Part shown: in pieces, positions 1-26,373 of the stretch
Numbering within the stretch: position 1 is the first letter of the stretch
Layout: each line of letters opens with the position of its first letter
Assembly (NCBI RefSeq): GCF_004102945.1
Contig: NZ_CP019384.1
Coordinates: 1,200,001-1,232,000, forward strand
Length of the DNA: 32,000 bases
Source: Candidatus Velamenicoccus archaeovorus
Lineage (GTDB): Bacteria; Omnitrophota; Gorgyraeia; Velamenicoccales; Velamenicoccaceae
Direction: 5' to 3'
Translations under genes and position numbers: made by a program
Notes under the pieces: model-generated
Told to the model about the DNA's origin: nothing
The model's input: only the letters and a program-made list of their open reading frames with translations
Databases searched by the model: none

Positions 1-1365
<1,365 letters not shown>

Positions 1366-1409
1366 AAAAAACGGTTGTTGACTTTTTACGGTCAACGACT
1401 TCTTGGCTA

Positions 1410-2022: not shown

Positions 2023-3228
2023 TTAAGCTTTTCTTTCGACGACGATTTTGACGAAGCTGCGCTTAGCCACCTGGATCAGGTATTCTCCGGGGTTTTTCAA
2101 TTCATAATTCACGGAGTCGATCTTTTCGCCGTTGACCTTTACGGCCCCCTGCTGGATCATGCGCCTGAACTCATTCTTGGTGTTATTGGTGTACAACAGA
2201 TCGACGCCGAGGTCCAAAAGCTGCAGGATGCCGATCGTTTCTTTGTCGCTTGAAACTTTTTTCACGGGCACGTGCTTCGGCACGTTTTTCTCGCGGAAGA
2301 CCGTTTCAAATTCCTTACGGGCGTCGCGCGCCGCATTGAGACCGTGATAGTGTGTGACGATAAAAGAAGCCAGCTTCATCTTGGCGTCCCGCGGATGCAT
2401 GGCAGACACAGCCGCCAAGTCCTCATCCGTCAGGAGCTCATAATATCTCATCATGAGCGTATCGTTGATGGACATGAGTTTACCGAACATCTCCTTAGGA
2501 GATTCGTTGATGCCGACATAATTCCCGAGGGATTTGGACATCTTGTTGGTGCCGTCCGTGCCCTCCAAGAGAGGCATGGTGATGACGACCTGGGGCATCT
2601 GGCCGTATTCCCTCTGCAGCTCGCGCCCAACCAAAAGGTTGAATTTCTGGTCCGTCCCTCCCAGCTCCACATCCGCCCTCAGGACGACGGAATCGTAGCC
2701 CTGGATCAAAGGATACATAAATTCCAGGATGCTGATCGGCCGGTTCTCCTTGAATCGCTTGGAAAAATCGTCGCGTTCCAGCATGCGTGCCACCGTATAC
2801 TTGCTCGAGAGGGCGATGACATCCTGGAACTTCATGCGCTCATACCAGCGGCTGTTGAACACGACGCGCGTGCGGCGGGGGTCCAAGATCTTGAAAATCT
2901 GCTTCTTATATGTCGCGGCATTCCTGATCACCTCTTCCCGCGACAGCTGTTTGCGGACCTCAGAGACGCCCGAAGGATCGCCGATGCGCCCCGTAAAATC
3001 ACCGATCAGAAAATAAACGATGTGTCCGAGGTCCTGAAAGGTTTTAAGTTTCCTCAAAAGGACCGTATGACCGAGGTGGATATCCGGGGCGGTCGGATCG
3101 AACCCCGCCTTCACCTTCAAGGGTTTGCCGGATTTTTCAGACCACCTCAGGCGCGCCACAAGCTCTTCTTCCGCGATGATCTCGCTTGTGCCCCGCTTAA
3201 TGACCTTTAATTGATCTTCGATGCTCAT
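2023..3228 (-). CDS. tyrS: Tyrosyl-tRNA synthetase
   Basis: ORF 2023-3252. It has the class I HIGH motif (HLGH), a verbatim KMSKS and a C-terminal S4-like domain. The start was moved to ATG 3228 ([13 protein letters not shown]), which fits typical TyrS N-termini. The exact start is uncertain. Confidence 0.93.
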
Positions 3229-3313: not shown

Positions 3314-4861
3314 TTAAGACGCCAGCCCCAGACCGATACGCATCTGGTCGGTGTCCACCTTGATGATCTTGATCTTGATCTTATCGCCGATATTGACCTT
3401 CTCGAATTGGTCCTTCGGGATCTCATTGATATAAAGCAGCCCCTCAAAATCAGCATCGAAACGGACAAAAACGCCGAAGTTGTTCTTGGACGTCACCTCA
3501 CCCTCGCGTTCCGTGCCGATGGGATAGGTTTCAGCGATCTTAGGCCAGGGGCTCTCCATCGCCTGCTTCAAGCCCAAGGATATCTTCTTGTTCTGGGCAT
3601 CGACCGACAAGATGACGACGTCGACCTTCTGGCCTTTTTTGAGGATTTCCTGAGGATTCATGACGCGTCTCGTCCAGGACATGTCCGAGACGTGGATCAT
3701 GCCGTCCAGATTACCGTCCAGCTCCACAAAGGCCCCGAAATCCGTGAAGCCGCTGATCTTGCCAGACACCTTCGATCCGACAGAAAATTTGTTCTCCGCC
3801 TCCAGCCAGGGATTGCCCTCGAGCTGTTTGATGCTCAAAGAGATCCTGCGGCTGTCCTTGTCGATAGTCAACACCTGGACTTCAACAGTATCGCCAACGG
3901 CAAACATCTCCTGCGTATTGATGTTCCTCTTCTGCCAGGAAATCTCGGAAACGTGGATCAGCCCCTCGATGCCCTTTTCCAGCTCGACAAACACGCCGTA
4001 AGGAACGATATTGACAACCTTGCCTTTCAATCTTGTGCCGACCGGGAACTTCTTGTCGACATCCGTCCAGGGATCGGCCATGCGCTGCTTGAGACCAAGG
4101 GACACCTTGGACGTCTCCTTGTTCATGTTCAGAATCACAACCTCGATCCTATCGCCGACGGCCAGCATCTCCGAAGGATGCGAAATGCGCGACCAACTCA
4201 TGTCCGTGATATGCAACAGGCCGTCTACGCCGCCCAGATCGATGAAGGCGCCGAAGTCCGTGATATTTTTGACCAAGCCGTTGACGACGTCTCCGGACTT
4301 GTGGGTCTCCCAGAAACGCAGACGGTTGTCCTCTTTTTCCTTAGCCACGGCTTCCTTGCGCGAAACGATCAAGCTCTTGCGCAGGGAGTTGATCTTGATG
4401 ATCTTGAATTTGAAAGAATGCCCGACAATATCCTTCTCGCTGACATTCCTGAACATGGCGAGGCTCGCAGGCAGGAATCCTTCCAGGCCGTAGACATCGA
4501 CGATAAAGCCGCCCTTGACTTTCTTGCGCACAAAGCCGTCGACCAAGTCCCCTTCTTTGAATCCCTGGTTGATCTTGTCCCAGCCGTGAAGACGTCTGGC
4601 CTTGTCGCGGGAAAGGACGATCATGCCATTATCATCTTCTATCGAATCCACGTAGACTTCCACTTCCTGGCCAACAGCCAGGTCAGGCAGGCCCGTGAAT
4701 TCTTCGCGCGCCACAGCCCCTTCGGACTTGTAACCCACGTCGATCAGGACATCTTTGACGCCGATCCTGACGATCTTGCCCTTGACGATCTCCCCTTCCT
4801 TGATCTCTTTGAAACTCTGTTCGTAGAGTTGCGTTAACGCTGCGTTCTTTTCTTCACTCAC
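3314..4861 (-). CDS. rpsA: 30S ribosomal protein S1 (six S1/OB repeats)
   Basis: The 515-aa ORF has recurring S1-domain signatures (G.VV.G.V..I..FGAFV/FGVFV...G..GL.H.S). A GTG start at 4861 lies 8 nt downstream of AAGGGGGA. Confidence 0.95.
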   Translation of the reverse strand: MSEEKNAALTQLYEQSFKEIKEGEIVKGKIVRIGVKDVLIDVGYKSEGAVAREEFTGLPDLAVGQEVEVYVDSIEDDNGMIVLSRDKARRLHGWDKINQGFKEGDLVDGFVRKKVKGGFIVDVYGLEGFLPASLAMFRNVSEKDIVGHSFKFKIIKINSLRKSLIVSRKEAVAKEKEDNRLRFWETHKSGDVVNGLVKNITDFGAFIDLGGVDGLLHITDMSWSRISHPSEMLAVGDRIEVVILNMNKETSKVSLGLKQRMADPWTDVDKKFPVGTRLKGKVVNIVPYGVFVELEKGIEGLIHVSEISWQKRNINTQEMFAVGDTVEVQVLTIDKDSRRISLSIKQLEGNPWLEAENKFSVGSKVSGKISGFTDFGAFVELDGNLDGMIHVSDMSWTRRVMNPQEILKKGQKVDVVILSVDAQNKKISLGLKQAMESPWPKIAETYPIGTEREGEVTSKNNFGVFVRFDADFEGLLYINEIPKDQFEKVNIGDKIKIKIIKVDTDQMRIGLGLAS

Positions 4862-4979: not shown

Positions 4980-5084
4980 GGATAAGATCCTGCGCTTCAA
5001 GGAAAGCGCAGACCTATCCTTTCTGGATAAGGTCCTGCGCTCTAAGGAAGGCGCAGACCTATCCTTTCTGGATAAGGCCTCGCG
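4980..5084. repeat. Tandem 45-bp repeat: 2 full units plus a partial third, each unit a long imperfect hairpin
   Basis: GGATAAG recurs at 4980, 5025 and 5070, giving a period of 45. Each unit is GGATAAGGTCCTGCGC, a 10-nt loop, GCGCAGACCTATCC, then TTTCT. Three of the four differences between units fall in the loop. It lies in the rpsA 5' leader. Confidence 0.9.
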
Positions 5085-5167
5085 TCCAAAATACTTAGGC
5101 GCCAAGCGTAAACCCCACACCGTCCTGAACCGCGACAGGTTCAAGACTGGTACGCGGGTAGAGCATA

Positions 5168-5205: not shown

Positions 5206-5814
5206 TCAGACGCCGGCATCAGCCGCCGCCTTGAGAGCACTGACCCGTTCCATCACCCGGCCGGCGAACGCCTCGTCTGACTCTCCCGACCCGGCGGACA
5301 GCGTCATCGACTCTCCGAACCAGACTGTGATCGGCGCCCTTCTGAGCCGCTTGTCCGTCTTAGACAAAGCAGCGTCTGTCCCCCGGACAAAAGCCGGCAC
5401 GACCGGGACGCCGCTTTTGCGTGCAAGGAAACCGACGCCGGCGCGTCCGCGGCCGATCTTGCCGCCCACCGTACGCGTCCCTTCGGGAAACAGCAGCAAC
5501 CCTTCCTGATGCCTTAAACGCCTCAGGGCTTCTTTCATGGCCCCCAGATCTGCGGCGTTGCGTTTCAGAGGAAAAGCACGCACACGCATCAGCAACCAGC
5601 CGAAAAAACGGGCCTTGAACAACGTATCCCTGGCCATGAAACTCAAAAATCTCGGGCAGGCGCAGCCGAAAACGATAGGATCGAGGTAGCTGACATGGTT
5701 GCAAGCCAAAAGAAAACCGCCGCGGCGGGGAATATTCTGTCTGCCGAAAACCTTGAAACGAAAGAACAATTTAAAGACAGAAAAAAATAAAAATCTGCCT
5801 ATGGCATAAATCAT
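5206..5814 (-). CDS. plsC: 1-acyl-sn-glycerol-3-phosphate acyltransferase
   Basis: Carries the NHxxxxD motif (NHVSYLD) and the FPEGTR block typical of the PlsC/LPLAT family. Confidence 0.9.
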   Translation of the reverse strand: MIYAIGRFLFFSVFKLFFRFKVFGRQNIPRRGGFLLACNHVSYLDPIVFGCACPRFLSFMARDTLFKARFFGWLLMRVRAFPLKRNAADLGAMKEALRRLRHQEGLLLFPEGTRTVGGKIGRGRAGVGFLARKSGVPVVPAFVRGTDAALSKTDKRLRRAPITVWFGESMTLSAGSGESDEAFAGRVMERVSALKAAADAGV

Positions 5815-19184: not shown

Positions 19185-19607
19185 TTACTCGATCGGTGTG
19201 CCGGCAGTGGTATTGCCAACTCTCACAACACCCGACTGATCGACAAAGAACGACCTGACACCCGTCACGTTCTCCGTCTGGGGCGTAGCAACGATGCCAT
19301 ATGTATTGCCGCCGCCGCTCAACGTGAACGTATAACCAGACTTATTGCCGCCCGCCAAAACAGAATCTATGTAGGGCGGATTGGAGGCGTTCAGGTTTGT
19401 CAAAGCCGTCGGATAGGCCGGTGGAGACTGGGCCGCCCTGTATGATTCCATGGCGGTGCTCAATGTCCTCATCGCCGCAATTGCCGTCGCCTCGTTGGCG
19501 CTTAATCTGGCCCTCAAGAGGTTCGGGATTGCGATCGCAGCCAAAAGGACGATGATGGCCACAACGATCATGATTTCAACAAGCGTGAAACCTTTTCTGG
19601 AGCGCAT
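19185..19607 (-). CDS. pilA: Type IV pilin (prepilin with class III signal peptide)
   Basis: MRSRKG|FTLVEIMIVVAIIVLLAAIAIPNLL is a prepilin cleavage/N-methylation motif with Glu at +5. ATG 19607 lies 8 nt after AAGGAGG, so the ORF-track start 19631 is rejected. 140 aa with no cysteines. Confidence 0.9.
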   Translation of the reverse strand: MRSRKGFTLVEIMIVVAIIVLLAAIAIPNLLRARLSANEATAIAAMRTLSTAMESYRAAQSPPAYPTALTNLNASNPPYIDSVLAGGNKSGYTFTLSGGGNTYGIVATPQTENVTGVRSFFVDQSGVVRVGNTTAGTPIE

Positions 19608-19689
19608 ATTTCTTTCCTCCTTTCTCGGCATGGATTGACTCTACGCTCAACTCTAAAAGATGATACAACTAGACCTTACTGTTTTCGAA

Positions 19690-19706
19690 AGCGTAAAGCC
19701 TGCCAA
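19690..19706 (-). promoter_or_regulatory. Sigma54-like -24/-12 element (weak)
   Basis: The minus strand reads TTGGCAGGCTTTACGCT with GG-N10-GC spacing, about 85 nt upstream of the pilin ATG. The -12 region (ACGCT) is a poor match to TTGCA/T. Confidence 0.25.
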
Positions 19707-19718
19707 CAAGTTACAACA

Positions 19719-19748
19719 ATTTTATCTCACCCCCTTCCTCATTGTCAA
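19719..19748 (-). promoter_or_regulatory. Strong sigma70-type promoter for the pilin gene
   Basis: Minus strand: TTGACA (19748-19743), 18-nt spacer, TAAAAT (19724-19719). It is preceded by AT-rich ATTATTATAAATATTTA. Confidence 0.6.
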
Positions 19749-19785
19749 TAAATATTTATAATAATGTCTTGCGACAACAGGGCAT

Positions 19786-19829
19786 AAAAAAACCTATTCC
19801 CTTCTTCCAAGAAGTCCTTGGGAATAGGT
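19786..19829 (-). terminator. Rho-independent terminator (10-bp stem plus U6) inside the pilC-pilin spacer
   Basis: Minus strand: ACCTATTCCC, 18-nt loop, GGGAATAGGT, TTTTTT. Arms at plus 19820-19829 and 19792-19801 were verified base by base. Confidence 0.8.
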
Positions 19830-19851
19830 GCACATGCGCCTTGCTTCGACA

Positions 19852-19944
19852 GCTGGACCCTCCTTAGCATGGATGCGGAGGTCCGCCCTTCCTGGGCTGG
19901 ACCCTCCTTAGCATGGATGCGGAGGTCCGCCCCTCTTGGGCTGG
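19852..19944. repeat. Tandem 44-bp repeat: 2 full units plus a 5-nt start of a third, each unit a hairpin
   Basis: GCTGG recurs at 19852, 19896 and 19940, giving a period of 44. The units differ at only 2 positions, both in the linker. Minus-sense unit: GGACCUCC-GCAUCCAUGC-UAAGGAGGGUCC. Confidence 0.9.
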
Positions 19945-20022
19945 CTGCCATCGTTTATAAAATACGATTAGGCCCTGTAGCTTTGTGCCCCACTCTTTCG
20001 AGCCCTTCCTGTAAAGAAGAGG

Positions 20023-20043
20023 TTCCGCGCCCTGGGCGCGGAA
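20023..20043. other. Perfect 9-bp GC-rich hairpin TTCCGCGCC-ctg-GGCGCGGAA
   Basis: Arms 20023-20031 and 20035-20043. It lies about 150 nt downstream of the pilC stop. No clean U-tract. Confidence 0.7.
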
Positions 20044-20074
20044 TGGTTTACTCGTTTGGCCGGTTTCTATTATA

Positions 20075-20102
20075 AGTATAACATTGCTTCGGCGGGATTC
20101 AA
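20075..20102 (-). promoter_or_regulatory. Sigma70-like promoter inside the pilC-pilin spacer
   Basis: Minus strand: TTGAAT (20102-20097), 16-nt spacer, TATACT (20080-20075), immediately followed by TATAAT (20074-20069). Confidence 0.35.
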
Positions 20103-20192
20103 GAGAACGCCTGTCAGGCAGGACGCACCGGGGAAGCGGAGGCGCGCCCGACAACCCATGCCCCAAAATCCAAGCCAGAATGCAGGATAGGG

Positions 20193-21386
20193 CTATCTGA
20201 TAAGCTCGGTGATCTTAAAGATGGGCATGAAGAGCGCTATAACGATGCCGCCGATAACGATCCCCAGAAAACCGATAACCACAGGCTCGATCATGGAGGT
20301 CAAACCTGAAACCGCCGCATCGACCTGCTCATCATAAAAATCGGCGATCTTGGTCAACATCTTCTCCAACTGCCCCGTCTGTTCACCGACGGAAATCATG
20401 CGCACGACCATGGGCGGGAAAACCCCGCTTTTGGACAAGGGGTCGGCGATGGGCTCGCCTTCCTTGATGGATGTCCGCGCATTCATGACCGCCTCTTCGA
20501 CGACAAGATTGCCGGCGGTCTTTCCGACGATCTCCAGCGCATTGAGGATGGGGACACCGCTCCGGACCAAGGTCGAGAGCGTCCGCGAGAACTTGGCAAC
20601 GACAACCTTTCGCAAGAGGGGTCCGAACAGCGGCATGCGCAACAGACTGCTGTCCAGTTGATAGCGCCCTCTGGGCGTATCGATGTATTTTTTAAAAACG
20701 AAACCGAAAACGACAAATCCGACGACAACGAAAGGGAAAAAATGACGCAGCGTATCGGAGATCAAGATCAAGACCTGCGTGGGCAGAGGCAGGGTGCCGC
20801 CGAGGGACGCAAAAATACCCTTGAACGTCGGGACCACCTTGACCAAAAGAACGATCGTGATCAATACCGCCATGGAAATGACGACGATGGGATAGACGAG
20901 CGAAGACTTTACCTTCCTCTGGAGGGCGCTTGATTTTTCCAGATAACCGGCCAACCGATCAAGGATCTCGTCGAGCAAGCCGGAGGCCTCCCCGGCCTTC
21001 ACCATGTTGACATAGAGATTCGAAAAAATCTTGGGGTGCTTATTCAGCGCCTCGTGAAGACTGGAACCGCTCTCGATATCTTCCTTGATCTTGAGCGTCA
21101 CATCCGAAAGGGTTTTGCTTTCAGCCTGCTCGCTCAAAATACTGAGCGCCTGGACAAGGGTGATGCCGCTTTCAACCATGGTCGCCAATTGACGAGAAAA
21201 AATAACCAGATCGTCGAGCTTAACCGCCTTCTCGACCATCTTTCTGACCCTCTCTTCCTTGACGGAAATAACGACCAGGTTTCTCTTGTGCAGCGTGGCA
21301 ATGGCGTCCTGTTCGCCCGCGGCCTCAAGGATCCCCGTCAATCTTATTCCCTGACTGTCTTTTGCGACATAGCTGTAGAGCGCCAT
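20193..21386 (-). CDS. pilC: Type IV pilus platform protein PilC (GspF family)
   Basis: 397 aa with duplicated T2SS-F domains and three TM segments. N-terminus ...YSYVAKDSQG....G.LEA....A...L. SD GAGGAGAAGGG lies upstream. Confidence 0.92.
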   Translation of the reverse strand: MALYSYVAKDSQGIRLTGILEAAGEQDAIATLHKRNLVVISVKEERVRKMVEKAVKLDDLVIFSRQLATMVESGITLVQALSILSEQAESKTLSDVTLKIKEDIESGSSLHEALNKHPKIFSNLYVNMVKAGEASGLLDEILDRLAGYLEKSSALQRKVKSSLVYPIVVISMAVLITIVLLVKVVPTFKGIFASLGGTLPLPTQVLILISDTLRHFFPFVVVGFVVFGFVFKKYIDTPRGRYQLDSSLLRMPLFGPLLRKVVVAKFSRTLSTLVRSGVPILNALEIVGKTAGNLVVEEAVMNARTSIKEGEPIADPLSKSGVFPPMVVRMISVGEQTGQLEKMLTKIADFYDEQVDAAVSGLTSMIEPVVIGFLGIVIGGIVIALFMPIFKITELIR

Positions 21387-21416: not shown

Positions 21417-22484
21417 TTACACGAATGTATCGACGACTTTCAAAAATGCCTCGACGACTTTGGGATCGAACTGCGAACCGCTGTTCTTCTTGATCTCCTC
21501 GACAGCCTCTGACTTCATCAAGCCCACCTTGCGATACGGCCGGGCCGACACCATCGCGTCGTAGCTGTCGGCGACGGTCATGATGCGTGCGCCCAGCGGG
21601 ATCTCTTCGCCTTTAAGCCCGTCGGGATAGCCCTTGCCGTCCCAACGCTCATGATGGTGTTTGACGATCGTGATGACGCTTTCCAGGAATTTTAGCGGCT
21701 CCAGGATCTGGGCGCCTTTCTCGGCGTGCTGCTTGATCTGGTTGAATTCATCATCCGTGAGGGCCGAAGGTTTGCTGAGCACATTATCGTGGACGCCGAT
21801 CTTGCCCAGATCGTGCAACTGACATGCGTCCCTGATATCATTGATATAGGAGGGGTCCACGTTCATCTGCCGCGCAATCGCTTCCGCATAACGCGTCACG
21901 TTGTCCGAATGCGAAAAGGTGTAATGATCGCGCGCATCGATCGCGTGCGCCAACGCCTTGATCGTGCGCATATATGTCTCTTTGAGATCCTCATAGAGAC
22001 GCGTCAAATTCTTCGTGCTCTCTTCGATGCGGCGCGCCAAAAGAAGATTCTGTTTCTGCAGCGCTATATTGCGCTCTTCGATCCCCTTGAGGGCGCGGCT
22101 GTTGTTAACGACGAATTTCCTGATCTCAAATGCCTGCTTGGCCTTGAAGTAAACCTCCTCGGACCTGAGCGGCTTGTAAAGATAATCGGTAGCGCCCAAT
22201 GCCAGAGACTCCTGGACAAGATTGGCCGTCTCGGTATAGCCCATGATGATGATAACCATGGCTTCATCCCTGTGGTGAAATTCACGCACGAGATAGCGGA
22301 CATCGAGGTCTTTAAGGCCGAGATCGATAAAAACGGCACCCGGCGTGTCTTGCTCATAAAACTGCAGGCCTACGCGCGCCGTCAGCGCCACCGTCACCTG
22401 ATAACCCCGCGTCGTCAGCGCCGTTTTGATCAAGGCGCAGCTTGCTTCATCACTATCGATCACCAAAACCTTCTGTTCGCTCAT
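21417..22484 (-). CDS. Response regulator with HD-GYP domain (predicted c-di-GMP phosphodiesterase, RpfG-like)
   Basis: The REC domain has an acidic pocket (VIDSDE), a phospho-acceptor context (VFIDLGL) and a conserved K (DYLYKPL). The HD-GYP domain has H-S-DNV, QLHDLGK and HHERWDGKGYPDGL. The start was moved to ATG 22484 (MSEQKVLVID), preceded by AAGGTG. Confidence 0.88.
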   Translation of the reverse strand: MSEQKVLVIDSDEASCALIKTALTTRGYQVTVALTARVGLQFYEQDTPGAVFIDLGLKDLDVRYLVREFHHRDEAMVIIIMGYTETANLVQESLALGATDYLYKPLRSEEVYFKAKQAFEIRKFVVNNSRALKGIEERNIALQKQNLLLARRIEESTKNLTRLYEDLKETYMRTIKALAHAIDARDHYTFSHSDNVTRYAEAIARQMNVDPSYINDIRDACQLHDLGKIGVHDNVLSKPSALTDDEFNQIKQHAEKGAQILEPLKFLESVITIVKHHHERWDGKGYPDGLKGEEIPLGARIMTVADSYDAMVSARPYRKVGLMKSEAVEEIKKNSGSQFDPKVVEAFLKVVDTFV

Positions 22485-22674
22485 TCGGACACCTTTGGTG
22501 GAATCTCCCGGGGTTCGCTCCCGAGGCAGCACCGCATTCCTCCCCGGTTTTTCCCGCTCCATTATCTTTTGTCCGGCGGGATCCCGCAAGGCAAGAAAAG
22601 CCGGGGATTCCTGCCGAGGGATTGAATCCTATTATACAAGGCTTAACGGCCTTGCCTACAAAAATCAGAAAGTT

Positions 22675-24390
22675 TTATTCCTCTGTCGTCGCGCGCAGGG
22701 CCTCTTCGATGGTCGTGATTCCCCGTGCCACCAACAACATGGCGTCATCCCTCAAGGTCCTCATCCCCTTTTCTTTCATGGCAAACTCTTTGATGTGGCC
22801 GCTGGAAGCCCTTTGGATGATCAACCCGCGGACCGCATCGTCAATCATCAGCACCTCGTGGATCCCGATACGCTCGAAGTAGCCGGAGTTATTACAAACA
22901 TGACACCCCTTGCCTTTAAAAAACGTCGGTTTCTCTCCGGCGCCGAGCACCCGCTCCAATCCGAGTTTCTTCCATGTCTCCCTGGGGATATCGATGGGCT
23001 CCTTGCAATGCTGGCAGATACGCCGGCAGAGGCGCTTGGCCGACGTCACAATGAGGCTGGAAGCGACCAGGAACGGCTCAATACCCATATCGATGAGACG
23101 CGTGATGGCTCCGACGGCGTCGTTAGTGTGGAGCGTCGACAAAACCACCTGCCCTGTCAATGATGCCTTGATCGCGATATCGGCGGTCTCGGAATCCCTG
23201 ATCTCGCCGACCATGACGACGTCCGGGCTCTGTCTCAAGACCGACCTTAAACCGGAGGCAAAAGTCAGGCCGATCTCGGGTCTCACGGCAATCTGCGTGA
23301 TGCCTTCCACCTGGTATTCCACAGGATCCTCGATCGTCACGATGTTGGACTCCGGTTTATTCAGCTTGTTAAGGATGGAATACAGCGTCGTCGACTTCCC
23401 GCAACCCGTCGGACCGGTGATCAAGATCATGCCGTAAGGTTTGATGATCGCCTCCTCGAACAGCCGGCGCGGCTCCTCCGTCATGCCCAGGGAGTCAAAT
23501 CCGACGGAGAGCTTGGACTTATCAAGTGTGCGCAAGACGAACTTCTGTCCGAAGGTTGTTGGGAGCGCCGAGACGCGGAAATCGATCTCCCGATCCTTCA
23601 GCTTGACCTTGAACCGCCCATCCTGCGGCAGGCGGGCCTCTGTGATATCGAGACCGGAGATGATCTTCAGACGCGCCAAAACCGCGTTCTGGTTTTTCTT
23701 CGGCAGCCGGAAGACATCAAAAAGATGGCCATCGATGCGGTAACGTATCCTCAGGTCGTGCTCCATGGGCTCCACATGGATATCGGAGGCGCGTTTTTTC
23801 AAGGCCTCTGTCAACATCAAATCGACGATCTTGACGATCGGGGCCTTCTCGCTCTCCTCAACAACAACCCCCAGCTCAATCGTCCCATCGGTCTTGACGA
23901 CCTCGACCTCTCCTCCCACCTCTTCTGCGGCGGCGGCCATCTCCTCGCTGCCCGTCGTCCCCTTAAAGAACCTGTCGAGGGCTTTGATGATGTCTTTCTC
24001 GCTGGCAAGGACGATGTCGACATCATGGCCGGTGATCGCCTTAAGGTCGTCAATCGCAAAAACATTCAAGGGATCGCTCATCGCGACACTCAGGACATTG
24101 CCGATCTTGGACAAGGGGATCGCCTTATATTGCCGTGCCACTTTTTCCGGGAGCATTTCGACAACCTGGGCATCGATTTTGTATTTCGCCAACTCGAGAT
24201 AAGGGATGAAAAGCTCCTTGGCAAGCGCGGCGATCAGGTCTTTTTCTTTTACGAAACCCTGCTTGACCAAAATATCCTTCAGGTTTTCCCCTGTCTTGGC
24301 CTGGATCTGCTCCGCCTTCTCCAAATCCTGAGGAGTCAACAATTTCGCCTGCAGAAGGGCATCCATGAGTCTTTTTTTAAGAGTTGCCAT
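22675..24390 (-). CDS. pilB: PilB/GspE-family assembly ATPase, copy 1
   Basis: Has an N-terminal T2SSE_N/MshEN-like domain, Walker A GPTGCGKST, Walker B DVVMVGEIRD, His box STLHTNDA and tetracysteine CQHC...CHVC. 571 aa. Confidence 0.92.
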   Translation of the reverse strand: MATLKKRLMDALLQAKLLTPQDLEKAEQIQAKTGENLKDILVKQGFVKEKDLIAALAKELFIPYLELAKYKIDAQVVEMLPEKVARQYKAIPLSKIGNVLSVAMSDPLNVFAIDDLKAITGHDVDIVLASEKDIIKALDRFFKGTTGSEEMAAAAEEVGGEVEVVKTDGTIELGVVVEESEKAPIVKIVDLMLTEALKKRASDIHVEPMEHDLRIRYRIDGHLFDVFRLPKKNQNAVLARLKIISGLDITEARLPQDGRFKVKLKDREIDFRVSALPTTFGQKFVLRTLDKSKLSVGFDSLGMTEEPRRLFEEAIIKPYGMILITGPTGCGKSTTLYSILNKLNKPESNIVTIEDPVEYQVEGITQIAVRPEIGLTFASGLRSVLRQSPDVVMVGEIRDSETADIAIKASLTGQVVLSTLHTNDAVGAITRLIDMGIEPFLVASSLIVTSAKRLCRRICQHCKEPIDIPRETWKKLGLERVLGAGEKPTFFKGKGCHVCNNSGYFERIGIHEVLMIDDAVRGLIIQRASSGHIKEFAMKEKGMRTLRDDAMLLVARGITTIEEALRATTEE

Positions 24391-24413
24391 AGAAAAATTA
24401 ATTAAAAATTAAC

Positions 24414-24556
24414 AATGAAAAATGAAGAATTAAAAATCCTCAAAGAAGCAAATCTGTTTCTCATTCACCGACCGCCAAAAGGCCGATGGCTGACACTCAA
24501 ACGCCCCGCCCTCGTGCTTGTTTCCATTGTTCATTCTCAATTTTTCATTTTTCATT
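24414..24556. repeat. 13-bp inverted repeat AATGAAAAATGAA / TTCATTTTTCATT bracketing the pilB2-pilB1 spacer
   Basis: Arms 24414-24426 and 24544-24556, the latter overlapping the pilB copy-2 stop codon. The spacer is 117 nt. Confidence 0.7.
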
Positions 24557-26278
24557 CTTCTCAATCGGTTCATCCGGTGCCGTGACGCGCAGGACTTCCT
24601 CCAGGGATGTCGCGCCTTCCAGGACCTTTTTAATGCCGTTCTCCCGCAGCGTCTTCATACCTTCTCTGCGGGCGGCCGCTTTGATTTCATACTCTTGCGC
24701 CCTCTGGATGATCAGATCTTTGATCTTCGGCGTCAGCACCAAGGCTTCGCCGATAACCAGACGGCCTGCATAACCGATACCGAAACATCTTTTGCACCCT
24801 CTCCCGCGAAACACGGTAATGCCCTTCTTGGCCGCAGAGATCCCCAAAGATGCCGCCGCTTCCGGCGTCAATTCATAACCTTCTTTACAGGAGTCGCACA
24901 CCTTGCGGACCAGGCGCTGGTTGATCAGACAGATAACAGAAGAAGTGATCAGAAAAGGTTCGACGCCCATATTGACAAGCCGGACAATGGTGCCTGCGGC
25001 AGTCGTCGTATGGAGCGTGCTTAAAACCAGATGGCCGGTCAAGGCGCTTTTGATGGCGATGTCCACGGTCTCGAAATCACGGATCTCGCCGACCATGATC
25101 GTATCCGGGTCCTGCCTGAGGATCGAACGCAGACAGCCGGCGAAGGTCAGGCCGATCTCGGGACGCACGCTTACCTGGTTAATGCCTTCCAGCTGATACT
25201 CCACAGGGTCTTCGACGGTCACGATGTTGTCTTCCGGCGTATCGACGTATTTCAAAACAGAATAAAGCGTTGTCGTCTTCCCGGACCCCGTCGGGCCGCA
25301 GACGAGAATCATGCCGTGAGGCCGGTCGGCGCCCGACTTGATGGTGGCCAGCGTCTCGGCGTCGAATCCCAGACGATCCAAATCAAGGGTCGCCATGCTC
25401 TTGTCCAAAATGCGCAGCGCCACCTTCTCGCCGAAAAAAGATGGAAGGATCGAGACGCGGAAATCGATAAAACGGTCCTGTATCTTGACTTTGAAGCGGC
25501 CGTCCTGCGGCAGGCGGTGTTCGGCAATGTCCAATTCCGACATGACCTTGATGCGCGAAACGATCGGGGCATGAAACTTCAAGGGCGGGCCTTCGATCTC
25601 GCGCAGCATCCCGTCCACCCGCACCCGCACGCGCATAGAATGCTCCCAGGGCTCGATCAAGATATCGCTGGCATTCATCTCGATGCCTTTTTCCAAAAGC
25701 AGGTTCGTGATCTTAATGACCGGCGCTTCTTTTGTCAAACGCACGAGTTCCTGGGTGTCGGGGCCGCCTTCGTGCGCGGCCCGGACCACCTCGATATCCA
25801 TATCGGAAATATCCTTGATGATCTCATCCAAGACCTGGGTCGCCGGCTCTTCATAATACTTTTCGATGGCCATCAGGATCTCTTTCTGCTCGGCGATAAT
25901 GGGATTGATCTCAAAACCCGTCAAGGCCTTGACATCATCAATGGCGAACACATTCAAGGGGTCGGCCATGGCCACGGTCAGCGCATGCCCCATTTTGCCG
26001 ACGGGGACGATCAGGTAATGCTTGGCCATATCTTTGGGGATAAGTTTGATGATTTCGGGGTCGATCTTAAAACGCGCCAGGGAAATGGGCGGGAATCCGA
26101 GACCTTCGCTGAGCGCCACAAGAAGGTCTTTTTCGCTGATGAGATTCAATTTCACCAGACAATCGCTCAGCCGGCCGCCATGCTCCTTCTGGACCTGCAG
26201 GGCCAGCTTAAGGTCGTCTTCGGATATCAGCTTGTTCTTAATGAGAATGTCCTGCAGGCGTTCTCTTAGGGAACTCAT
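24545..26278 (-). CDS. pilB: PilB/GspE-family assembly ATPase, copy 2
   Basis: Has an N-terminal T2SSE_N/MshEN-like domain, Walker A GPTGSGKTT, Walker B DTIMVGEIRD, TGHLVLSTLHT and tetracysteine CDSC...CKRC. 577 aa. Confidence 0.92.
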   Translation of the reverse strand: MSSLRERLQDILIKNKLISEDDLKLALQVQKEHGGRLSDCLVKLNLISEKDLLVALSEGLGFPPISLARFKIDPEIIKLIPKDMAKHYLIVPVGKMGHALTVAMADPLNVFAIDDVKALTGFEINPIIAEQKEILMAIEKYYEEPATQVLDEIIKDISDMDIEVVRAAHEGGPDTQELVRLTKEAPVIKITNLLLEKGIEMNASDILIEPWEHSMRVRVRVDGMLREIEGPPLKFHAPIVSRIKVMSELDIAEHRLPQDGRFKVKIQDRFIDFRVSILPSFFGEKVALRILDKSMATLDLDRLGFDAETLATIKSGADRPHGMILVCGPTGSGKTTTLYSVLKYVDTPEDNIVTVEDPVEYQLEGINQVSVRPEIGLTFAGCLRSILRQDPDTIMVGEIRDFETVDIAIKSALTGHLVLSTLHTTTAAGTIVRLVNMGVEPFLITSSVICLINQRLVRKVCDSCKEGYELTPEAAASLGISAAKKGITVFRGRGCKRCFGIGYAGRLVIGEALVLTPKIKDLIIQRAQEYEIKAAARREGMKTLRENGIKKVLEGATSLEEVLRVTAPDEPIEKNEK

Positions 26279-26373
26279 TGGTCTTTCCTGTGGAAGGAGA
26301 TTAGGACGAAGCCTCGGCGTGGAACCGTGAAACTCAGGACCGGTCTCTTGAAAGAAATCATCTCTGCAAAGGC

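Follow-up and report, generated by a model that had tools for sequence, protein, structure and literature searches.

The 32,000-nucleotide stretch of the Candidatus Velamenicoccus archaeovorus genome analysed here (contig NZ_CP019384.1, positions 1,200,001 to 1,232,000; hereafter, the window) carries on its minus strand a long spacer between the pilus gene pilC and a type IV pilin gene. We propose, with a probability of roughly 80% and from comparison of sequences, that this spacer is a transcriptional leader of the cyclic di-GMP (c-di-GMP)-I riboswitch type, that two 44-nt repeats within it are a recent and variable insertion, that the leader would act as an OFF switch, and that the window copy would have lost some or all of its response to the ligand. 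The homology, conservation and anatomy of the leader and the variability of the repeats are matters of observation; the OFF logic and the loss of function we infer. An earlier note on this DNA had described the spacer as a separate small transcription unit built from hairpin repeats. The unit itself stands, in that its promoter, RNA and terminator are conserved, but the conserved core is a c-di-GMP-I aptamer and not the repeats; this aptamer-like element, which lies between a GC-rich hairpin and the repeats, had been missed.

At the gathering threshold, an Rfam scan of the whole window matched only the 16S gene. In a permissive scan of the spacer, the Rfam c-di-GMP-I model (GEMM-I, RF01051; gathering score, 35 bits) matched positions 20019-19935 at 25.6 bits. 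A sub-threshold match is by itself only a lead, and related loci were therefore collected: 80 genome loci via PilC, a protein that places the organism in Candidatus Omnitrophota, 7 metagenome loci via the aptamer core, and 2 contigs with an identical pilin. Wherever PilC identity is about 68% or more, the spacer has a common layout, which runs 5' to 3' from a conserved promoter (promoter P1) through the motif GGUAAACCA, a hairpin capped by GAAA, the junction GGGGCACAAAGCUACAGGGCCUAA and the 3' strand GGCAGCCAGUUGCCGA to a short variable linker and a terminator, followed in most loci by a second promoter (promoter P2) and a conserved pilin 5' untranslated region (UTR). The RF01051 gathering score is passed, at 38-72 bits, by 15 syntenic relatives that are free of the repeats (named as passing: L002-L008, L010, L012-L014, L082, L084 and L085); the repeat-bearing L001 and L086 gave no RF01051 hit. 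When these 15 relatives are aligned, 98.8% of cells hold standard pairs, and there are 4 compensatory pairs versus 0/500 shuffles. Helix P1 and the apical stem of helix P3 were left out of this column-wise count because junction and loop lengths vary; covariation in helix P1, read by eye, takes the form UCG/CGA, AUCG/CGAU, GUUG/CGAC and CAUUG/CAAUG. A clade covariance model built from the same alignment (R1) scores the window (20063-19931), which aligns to it end to end, at 80.7 bits (E about 1e-16), L088 at 80.7 bits, L086 at 80.4 bits and L001 at 53.6 bits. Run against L015-L080, R1 found no aptamer downstream of pilC, and many of these contigs end soon after that gene. Many Omnitrophota contigs among L016-L074 stop 0-2.5 kb downstream of pilC, which suggests assembly breaks near the pilin, perhaps through strain heterogeneity or repeated pilin sequences.

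Based on the shared layout, the Rfam passes, the covariation and the R1 scores, we conclude that the conserved content of the spacer is a c-di-GMP-I type leader with its own promoter; by sequence, positions 20063-19940 plus 19851-19843 (minus strand) are a homologue of the c-di-GMP-I aptamer. Related loci conserve the promoter, the RNA and the terminator alike, and this RNA is therefore more than the pilC 3' UTR that had been offered as one option. The earlier proposals that it is structured and noncoding hold.

In the proposed arrangement, transcription from promoter P1 would produce the aptamer within the first ~130 nt; an intrinsic terminator comes next, then promoter P2 and the pilin UTR. 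The aptamer would consist of a helix P2 with a GAAA tetraloop and two extra hairpins, a GGGGCACAAAGC junction, and a helix P3 with a tetraloop receptor. Several hallmarks can be read off directly, using Vc2 numbering as assigned from the Rfam consensus alignment and PMC6140456. The P2 hairpin of the window is GNRA capped (CUCGAAAGAG), the tetraloop receptor CCUAAU...GAUGG is found in P3, and the junction pairs G21-C46 and U22-A45 and the intercalating A47 are all present; in L014, pair 22-45 is a compensatory C22-G45. The displaced 3' end of the aptamer, UGUCGAAGC, is collinear with CCAGCUGCCGAAGC of the repeat-free L002 and L003. Helix P1 is weak in the window (CCA versus CGA, 1/3 pairs); L002 has UCG/CGA, and relatives have 3-5 bp. 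At the site of the two extra P2 hairpins, 15 of 20 clade sequences carry two hairpins of differing sequence, and 5 compact relatives carry none. The GC hairpin of the earlier note is the first of these (hp1), its arms (20043-20034 and 20032-20023) being 100% complementary; a role as the pilC terminator was rejected, as it is part of a two-hairpin P2 insertion that covaries among relatives.

The elements that flank the aptamer had also been described correctly: the promoter-like sequence at its 5' side, which is promoter P1 with a TATAAT overlapping its -10 element, the clean terminator with its 10-bp stem and U run, and the strong pilin promoter beyond it. Transcription from promoter P1 would start near 20068, and its motif, CTTGAA(A/T)-N15/16-TGTTA(T/C)ACT, is kept upstream of the aptamer in L001-L012 and L081-L086 by direct reading. 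Long low-complexity direct repeats lie between pilC and this promoter in L004 (5200-5660) and L006 (5200-5480). The outer stem of the terminator pairs 19829-19820 with 19801-19792 at 10/10 positions, the U run ends at 19786, and the stem CCUAUUC...GAAUAGG is kept across the clade. An automated terminator scan of the window did not report this hairpin because its loop exceeds 8 nt; the stem was seen in an inverted-repeat search and in folds. Promoter P2, with its purine-rich spacer, is kept in L002-L012 and L081-L085; that spacer, AAGGAGGTGAG in most relatives and GGAAGGGGGTGAG in the window, may be a binding site for a regulator. The pilC-pilin gap, previously given as 560 bp, is 561 nt when counted from the first in-frame pilin ATG (19631) and 585 nt when counted from the ATG at 19607, which has the Shine-Dalgarno (SD) sequence AAGGAGG 9 nt upstream and gives the product MRSRKGFTLVEIM. 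The pilin 5' UTR is 100% identical to that of L001 and L086 and 95% identical to that of L002 and L003. Its long-range stem (GGCAGGCUUUACGC with GCGUAGAGU...UGCC; 19627-19704) is conserved, ends beside the SD sequence, shows apparent compensatory changes in relatives, e.g., GACA/UGUC in L005, and matched no Rfam family.

Table 1. Features of the pilC-pilin spacer and of the neighbouring genes in window coordinates
Feature	Position	Strand	Details
pilC	20193..21386	minus	T2SSF platform protein; gene upstream of the spacer
Promoter P1	20102-20075	minus	-35 TTGAAT 20102-20097; 16-nt spacer; TG-extended -10 TATACT 20080-20075
c-di-GMP-I-like aptamer	19940..20063	minus	5' junction to P3 3' strand; RF01051 and clade model R1
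Aptamer position 20, G21/U22 and P2 base	20052; 20051-20050		position 20 = A at 20052; G21/U22 at 20051-20050; P2 base CCA/UGG
Two extra hairpins within helix P2	20003..20043	minus	hp1 20043-20023; hp2 20022-20003
Aptamer GNRA hairpin	20002-19993		CUCGAAAGAG
Aptamer core	19992-19965		UGGGGCACAAAGCUACAGGGCCUAAUCG; A47 at 19984
Proposed antiterminator, 5' half	19984..19995	minus	aptamer core segment GAGUGGGGCACA; P2 3' strand and junction residues 42-47
Aptamer P3 3' strand	19953-19940	minus	CGAUGGCAGCCAGC
Two tandem 44-nt hairpin units	19852..19939	minus	19939-19896 and 19895-19852; both end in CCAGC
Displaced aptamer 3' end	19843..19851	minus	UGUCGAAGC; pocket and P1 3' strand; U90 G91 U92 (19849) C93 G94 A95
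Proposed antiterminator, 3' half	19822..19834	minus	UGUGCACCUAUUC; GUGCC-type segment and terminator 5' arm
Intrinsic terminator	19786..19829	minus	10-bp outer stem and inner CUUCU/AGAAG stem, then U run
Proximal pilin promoter P2	19719..19748	minus	TTGACA-18-TAAAAT; 11/12 match
Pilin 5' UTR	19608..19718	minus	long-range stem 19704-19691 with 19646-19627; SD AAGGAGG 19622-19616
Type IV pilin gene	19185..19607	minus	140 aa; N-terminal methylation motif
HAMP-GAF-GGDEF protein	26884-28347
Two T2SSE ATPases with MshEN domains	24545-26278; 22675-24390
REC-HD-GYP protein	21417-22589		between pilB and pilC

To judge by their distribution, the 44-nt units were inserted recently, as tandem copies of variable number, within a single narrow clade, and they are not the functional core. 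Two copies are present in the window; three are present in L088, which is 98.1% identical to the window over 5.4 kb, in L086, and in L001 and L089 (the last three with pilC about 97% identical in nucleotides); none is present in L002, L003 and L083, at 93% PilC identity, or in any more distant locus. When the 585-nt spacer is compared with that of L088, the array accounts for every difference (one extra unit and several point changes). The earlier note had said beforehand that a lack of conservation in related loci would count against the repeats, and this is what is seen: they are absent at 93% PilC identity and beyond, and even strains 98% identical to each other differ in the number and sequence of their copies. 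It had also raised a generic intergenic repeat, which they do not resemble, in that no further unit copies were found in the 32-kb window at up to 3 mismatches or, away from this site, in about 640 kb of DNA from related loci. The exact unit core had no hit in the JGI metagenome or viral collections, a weak negative because the units of L086 carry one changed base and the pattern missed L086 too.

As had been reported, the two units of the window are nearly identical; they differ at 2 positions, both in the 5' linker, and no shuffle of the window gave such a match. Each folds as GGACCUCC...GGAGGGUCC at -14.5 kcal/mol, with ACCUCC paired to AAGGAGG as stated earlier, but dinucleotide shuffles fold just as stably (z = -0.44). 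The nine distinct units retain the hairpin at 97% of cells, with one compensatory change from G-C to A-U (a single lineage event) and two C-to-U wobble changes. An assembly artefact was rejected, with the array present in five independent assemblies (window, L001, L086, L088 and L089), as was a coding reading based on a 68-aa open reading frame across the repeats (19745-19951), given a period of 44, a varying copy number and absence in relatives.

Comparison with L002 locates the insertion site: L002 reads GGCAGCCAGCUGCCGAAGCAAGG, and the window reads GGCAGCCAGC, two units, and UGUCGAAGCAAGG. The repeats thus sit after the P3 3' strand and before U90 G91 N92 C93, with 88 nt between P3 and the pocket strand, and the CCAGC at the end of the unit duplicates the end of the P3 3' strand. 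Because every unit ends in CCAGC, P3 could be closed with either the proximal or the last copy. If the last were used, the A49-U90 pair and a contiguous pocket strand would be restored, and the 88 nt would be looped out of the AG bulge of P3. Constrained folds of the two registers are about equal (distal CCAGCU, -82.6 kcal/mol; proximal, -81.4 kcal/mol), and therefore the insertion need not destroy the aptamer. The same linker holds other hairpin insertions in L083, L001, L007 and L012, so the site tolerates extra structure. In L083 (about 3040-3130, minus strand) and L001 (5575-5640), an insertion of ~60 nt, rich in hairpins and containing CCGACCUCCGAAGGAGCGUCGG, lies in the aptamer-to-terminator linker and has a CUCC...GGAG theme like that of the 44-nt unit; the insertions of L007 and L012 differ. 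The 3' half of the unit, AUCCAUGCUAAGGAGG, resembles the ribosome binding site region of the pilin gene, AUCCAUGCCGAGAAAGGAGG (19616-19635), and its 5' half, GGGCGGACCUCCGCAUCC, resembles GGGCGCGCCUCCGCUUCC just after pilC (20132-20149). There are hints, then, that the unit may have arisen from local sequence.

The lineages that carry the repeats also differ in the ligand pocket. All 15 repeat-free relatives have G20 and C92. Position 20 is A in the window and L088 and G in L086, and position 92 is U in the window, L088 and L086 (GCUGUCGA versus GCUGCCGA). L001 and L089 have four noncanonical pairs in an otherwise invariant core and a 2-nt insertion after C92. Because A20 is limited to the window and L088 and their close relative L086 has G20, it is a strain-level change and defines no stable class; the GEMM-Ib signature combines A20 as a class feature with a retained C92 equivalent, and position 92 of the window is U. 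Identity to the window for L001 and L086, respectively, is 90% and 95% in the aptamer (small numbers: 12 and 6 substitutions), 97.3% and 97.5% in pilC, 100% in the pilin UTR, and about 86% in the unconstrained gap between pilC and promoter P1. On these small numbers, the aptamer appears to evolve more quickly than the DNA around it, and this in precisely those lineages that carry repeats. Given A20, U92 and the weakened helix P1, the ligand response of the window copy is probably weakened or lost. The relatives are straightforward members of RF01051, and the window copy is a clear homologue. We file the window aptamer as a derived variant because it falls short in four respects (gathering score, G20, C92 and contiguous junction); it is possibly a decaying variant of the known class RF01051. 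Decay has occurred elsewhere in the clade, in L009, where a decayed aptamer is accompanied by a retained GGGCAC/GUGCC pair and terminator.

How would such a leader act on the pilin gene? In our model, the absence of ligand would allow UGUGCACCUAUUC to pair with GAGUGGGGCACA, which would block the terminator and let promoter P1 transcripts reach the pilin gene; bound ligand would lock the aptamer, the terminator would form, and promoter P1 transcripts would stop at about 19786. The GUGCC is kept just 5' of the terminator, and the linker around it is variable. In the window, the two segments form a 12-bp duplex with one bulge at -16.3 kcal/mol; across the clade, the duplex between core and preterminator segment has energies of -13 to -16 kcal/mol and beats shuffled partners in 14/20 loci (the row for L001 in this test is to be disregarded, a wrong CCUAU site having been taken). 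In unconstrained minimum-energy folds, pairings of the core and adjacent sequence replace the terminator in 12/20 leaders, among them that of the window, where the probability of the terminator is 0.00. L013 and L014 have a second antiterminator, in which aptamer CCAGUU(G/A)CC pairs with GGUAACUGG in the terminator. With either pairing, an aptamer fold stabilised by ligand would be expected to release the terminator. Together with the analogy to Cd1, a riboswitch of Clostridioides difficile compared below, this modelling suggests an OFF switch. Because a strong promoter follows the terminator, the switch would gate only the share of pilin mRNA that comes from promoter P1.

The genes next to this leader are consistent with such a ligand. 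Upstream of pilC lie a HAMP-GAF-GGDEF protein, two T2SSE ATPases and a REC-HD-GYP protein (Table 1), and the same cluster holds pilM, pilN, pilO and a secretin. Both ATPases have MshEN domains, a type of domain that binds c-di-GMP. Judging by domain content, 21417-28347 is a local c-di-GMP module, which fits a c-di-GMP-responsive leader.

Several points weigh against the reading of the spacer as a possibly eroding c-di-GMP-I OFF switch, and they touch different parts of it. With respect to identity, the window itself does not reach the Rfam gathering threshold, and 88 nt separate its 3' pocket strand from P3. With respect to erosion, core P2 and P3 of the window, L086 and L088 still equal the clade consensus, which argues against complete decay, and single G20A variants of Vc2 still bind c-di-GMP tightly, at 53 nM (PMC6140456). 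With respect to the OFF logic, the minimum-energy fold of 7 compact relatives keeps the terminator without ligand, and the logic in these leaders must therefore rest on folding kinetics. The core sequence that pairs with the preterminator segment is invariant, which places the antiterminator helix beyond covariation testing. Finally, C. difficile pilA1 is controlled by a c-di-GMP-II switch of the ON type (PMC6366702), and an OFF switch on a pilin gene would run counter to it.

Given this last point, could the same anatomy operate with the opposite sign? Termination just upstream of promoter P2 might relieve that promoter of occlusion by read-through from promoter P1, such that high c-di-GMP would raise pilin expression, or the leader might contain a true ON platform. 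Only about 40 nt separate the end of the terminator from the -35 element of the near-consensus promoter P2, the MshEN-bearing pilus ATPases would fit a role for c-di-GMP in favouring pili, and c-di-GMP promotes pilA1 expression in C. difficile (PMC6366702). However, the analysis turned up no structure that would let bound ligand keep the terminator from forming, and the sole conserved competitor of the terminator involves aptamer core residues; we regard this alternative as unlikely, if a live contender. Might the window copy instead be a functional, retuned riboswitch, in which the array is tolerated as a branch of P3, A20 and U92 shift affinity or specificity to 3'3'-cyclic GMP-AMP (cGAMP) or cyclic di-AMP (c-di-AMP), and two versus three units tune strains? 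We would give this a small chance of being right. The same two bases occur in the Vc2 G20A/C92U mutant that binds c-di-AMP (PDB 3MUV, cited in PMC7288161), Vc2 with only the G20A change recognises both cGAMP and c-di-GMP (PMC6140456), the fold in the distal register matches the proximal one in stability, core P2 and P3 are unchanged in the window, L086 and L088, and the unit hairpins survive via a compensatory change from G-C to A-U and C-to-U wobbles. That hairpin covariation amounts to one evolutionary event, however, and A20 is limited to the window and L088, with G20 in L086; the sister lineage L001/L089 has four broken pairs, helix P1 retains 1/3 pairs, and the flanking genes are all c-di-GMP related. 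The stronger version, a working sensor split at the P3 bulge by a hairpin array, with its specificity or threshold shifted by A20/U92 and with gain or loss of 44-nt units tuning pilin between near-identical strains, has in our estimate a slim chance.

Two further explanations concern the repeats themselves. The unit could be a small mobile or palindromic element, similar to repetitive extragenic palindromes or miniature inverted-repeat transposable elements, that landed in the riboswitch, with the flanking CCAGC as a 5-bp target duplication. Its hairpin termini, the 39-nt insert between direct CCAGC repeats, the tandem array, the other hairpin insertions at the same linker in L083 and L001, and an unrelated 45-nt tandem hairpin repeat at 4980-5089 are all in keeping with such an origin. 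Against it stand the want of other copies in the window, in the related loci outside the site and, as exact hits of the unit core, in the JGI collections, and the local similarity of the unit to the flanking spacer, which fits a local origin; we consider a mobile element very unlikely. The earlier note had suggested that the SD and anti-SD sequences of the repeats might act by titrating a ribosome, S1 or some other RNA-binding protein, or by making nearby transcripts more stable, in which case the terminated ~280-nt product would be a trans-acting noncoding RNA. A discrete promoter-to-terminator unit does exist, each repeat does contain AAGGAGG and ACCUCC, and its 3' half is like the pilin ribosome binding site region. 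Yet the nearest repeat-free relatives keep the whole unit without the repeats, SD and anti-SD are paired with each other inside each repeat so that the GGA/SD motifs lie in stems and not in loops, the hairpin energy is ordinary, and AAGGAGG is no commoner in the window than expected by chance. Moreover, no part of the locus varies more than the array, the Rfam scans matched no CsrB/RsmY-like family, and a known cis-acting riboswitch accounts for the conserved part. Titration thus finds no support here, and we hold a sponge-like RNA to be extremely unlikely.

If the c-di-GMP-I leader is accepted, the element would connect cyclic-dinucleotide signalling with the major type IV pilin of an Omnitrophota lineage. 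Members of this uncultured phylum live attached to hosts, and type IVa pili are believed to play a central part in that way of life, according to a paper that leaves c-di-GMP unmentioned (PMC10066038). The locus also illustrates that a lineage-specific insertion can drop a genuine riboswitch homologue under the Rfam threshold. In addition, the clade provides a natural series, in unit number (0, 2 or 3 inserted) and in pocket (G20/C92, G20/U92 or A20/U92), that could serve for studies of aptamer decay or of the tolerance of aptamers for insertions. If the window copy is simply eroding, the finding is an ordinary one, namely, a known riboswitch class and a local tandem duplication.

Other observations in the collected DNA are recorded here. 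The tandem hairpin repeat at window positions 4980-5089 has a period of 45 and 2.5 copies, is unrelated in sequence to the 44-nt unit, and lies in the rpsA leader (minus strand), between an acyltransferase gene (5206-5814) and the gene for ribosomal protein S1 (3314-4861), both on the minus strand. The 16S rRNA gene at 1-1367 (minus strand) is cut by the window edge, with its anti-SD 3' end outside the window; in the related locus L015, the 16S 3' end is GGAUCACCUCCUUUC.

Among known systems, the closest by mechanism is Cd1 (Cdi-1-3), the GEMM-I transcriptional OFF switch of the C. difficile flgB operon, which uses an aptamer-strand antiterminator, binds its ligand without a stable helix P1 and leaves a terminated short RNA (PMC9262584, PMC6366702). 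Both leaders place a GEMM-I aptamer before an intrinsic terminator, with the OFF logic being a prediction for the window. Cd1 differs in that it controls flagella and not a pilin, is without a second promoter after the terminator, is without extra P2 hairpins or a tandem insert between P3 and the pocket, and has the G20 and C92 equivalents. Bc1, a c-di-GMP-I riboswitch of the Bacillus cereus group that binds its ligand yet gives little regulatory response (PMC11218506), likewise joins a GEMM-I aptamer to an unusually long structured platform. Its platform holds two terminators and lacks a tandem hairpin array, and the added length comes after a complete aptamer.

For the pocket, the nearest counterpart is the Vc2 G20A/C92U mutant, which has the same two bases, A20 and U92, as the window aptamer. 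This mutant is an engineered V. cholerae RNA with an intact helix P1 and a contiguous junction. By target, the closest systems are the GEMM-Ib switch of Geobacter metallireducens pilM and the class II switch of C. difficile pilA1. The Geobacter switch, which responds to 3'3'-cGAMP, shares with the window the GEMM-I fold and A20, lies before a type IV pilus assembly gene and, like the proposed window leader, regulates transcription (PMC9262584, PMC6140456). This switch is of the ON type, keeps the C92 equivalent and has A20 as a stable class feature, whereas A20 in the window is strain specific and combined with U92 and an 88-nt insertion. Cdi-2-4, upstream of pilA1, resembles the window in that a c-di-GMP riboswitch with a terminator immediately precedes the gene for the major type IV pilin (PMC6366702); its aptamer belongs to class II, and it is an ON switch.

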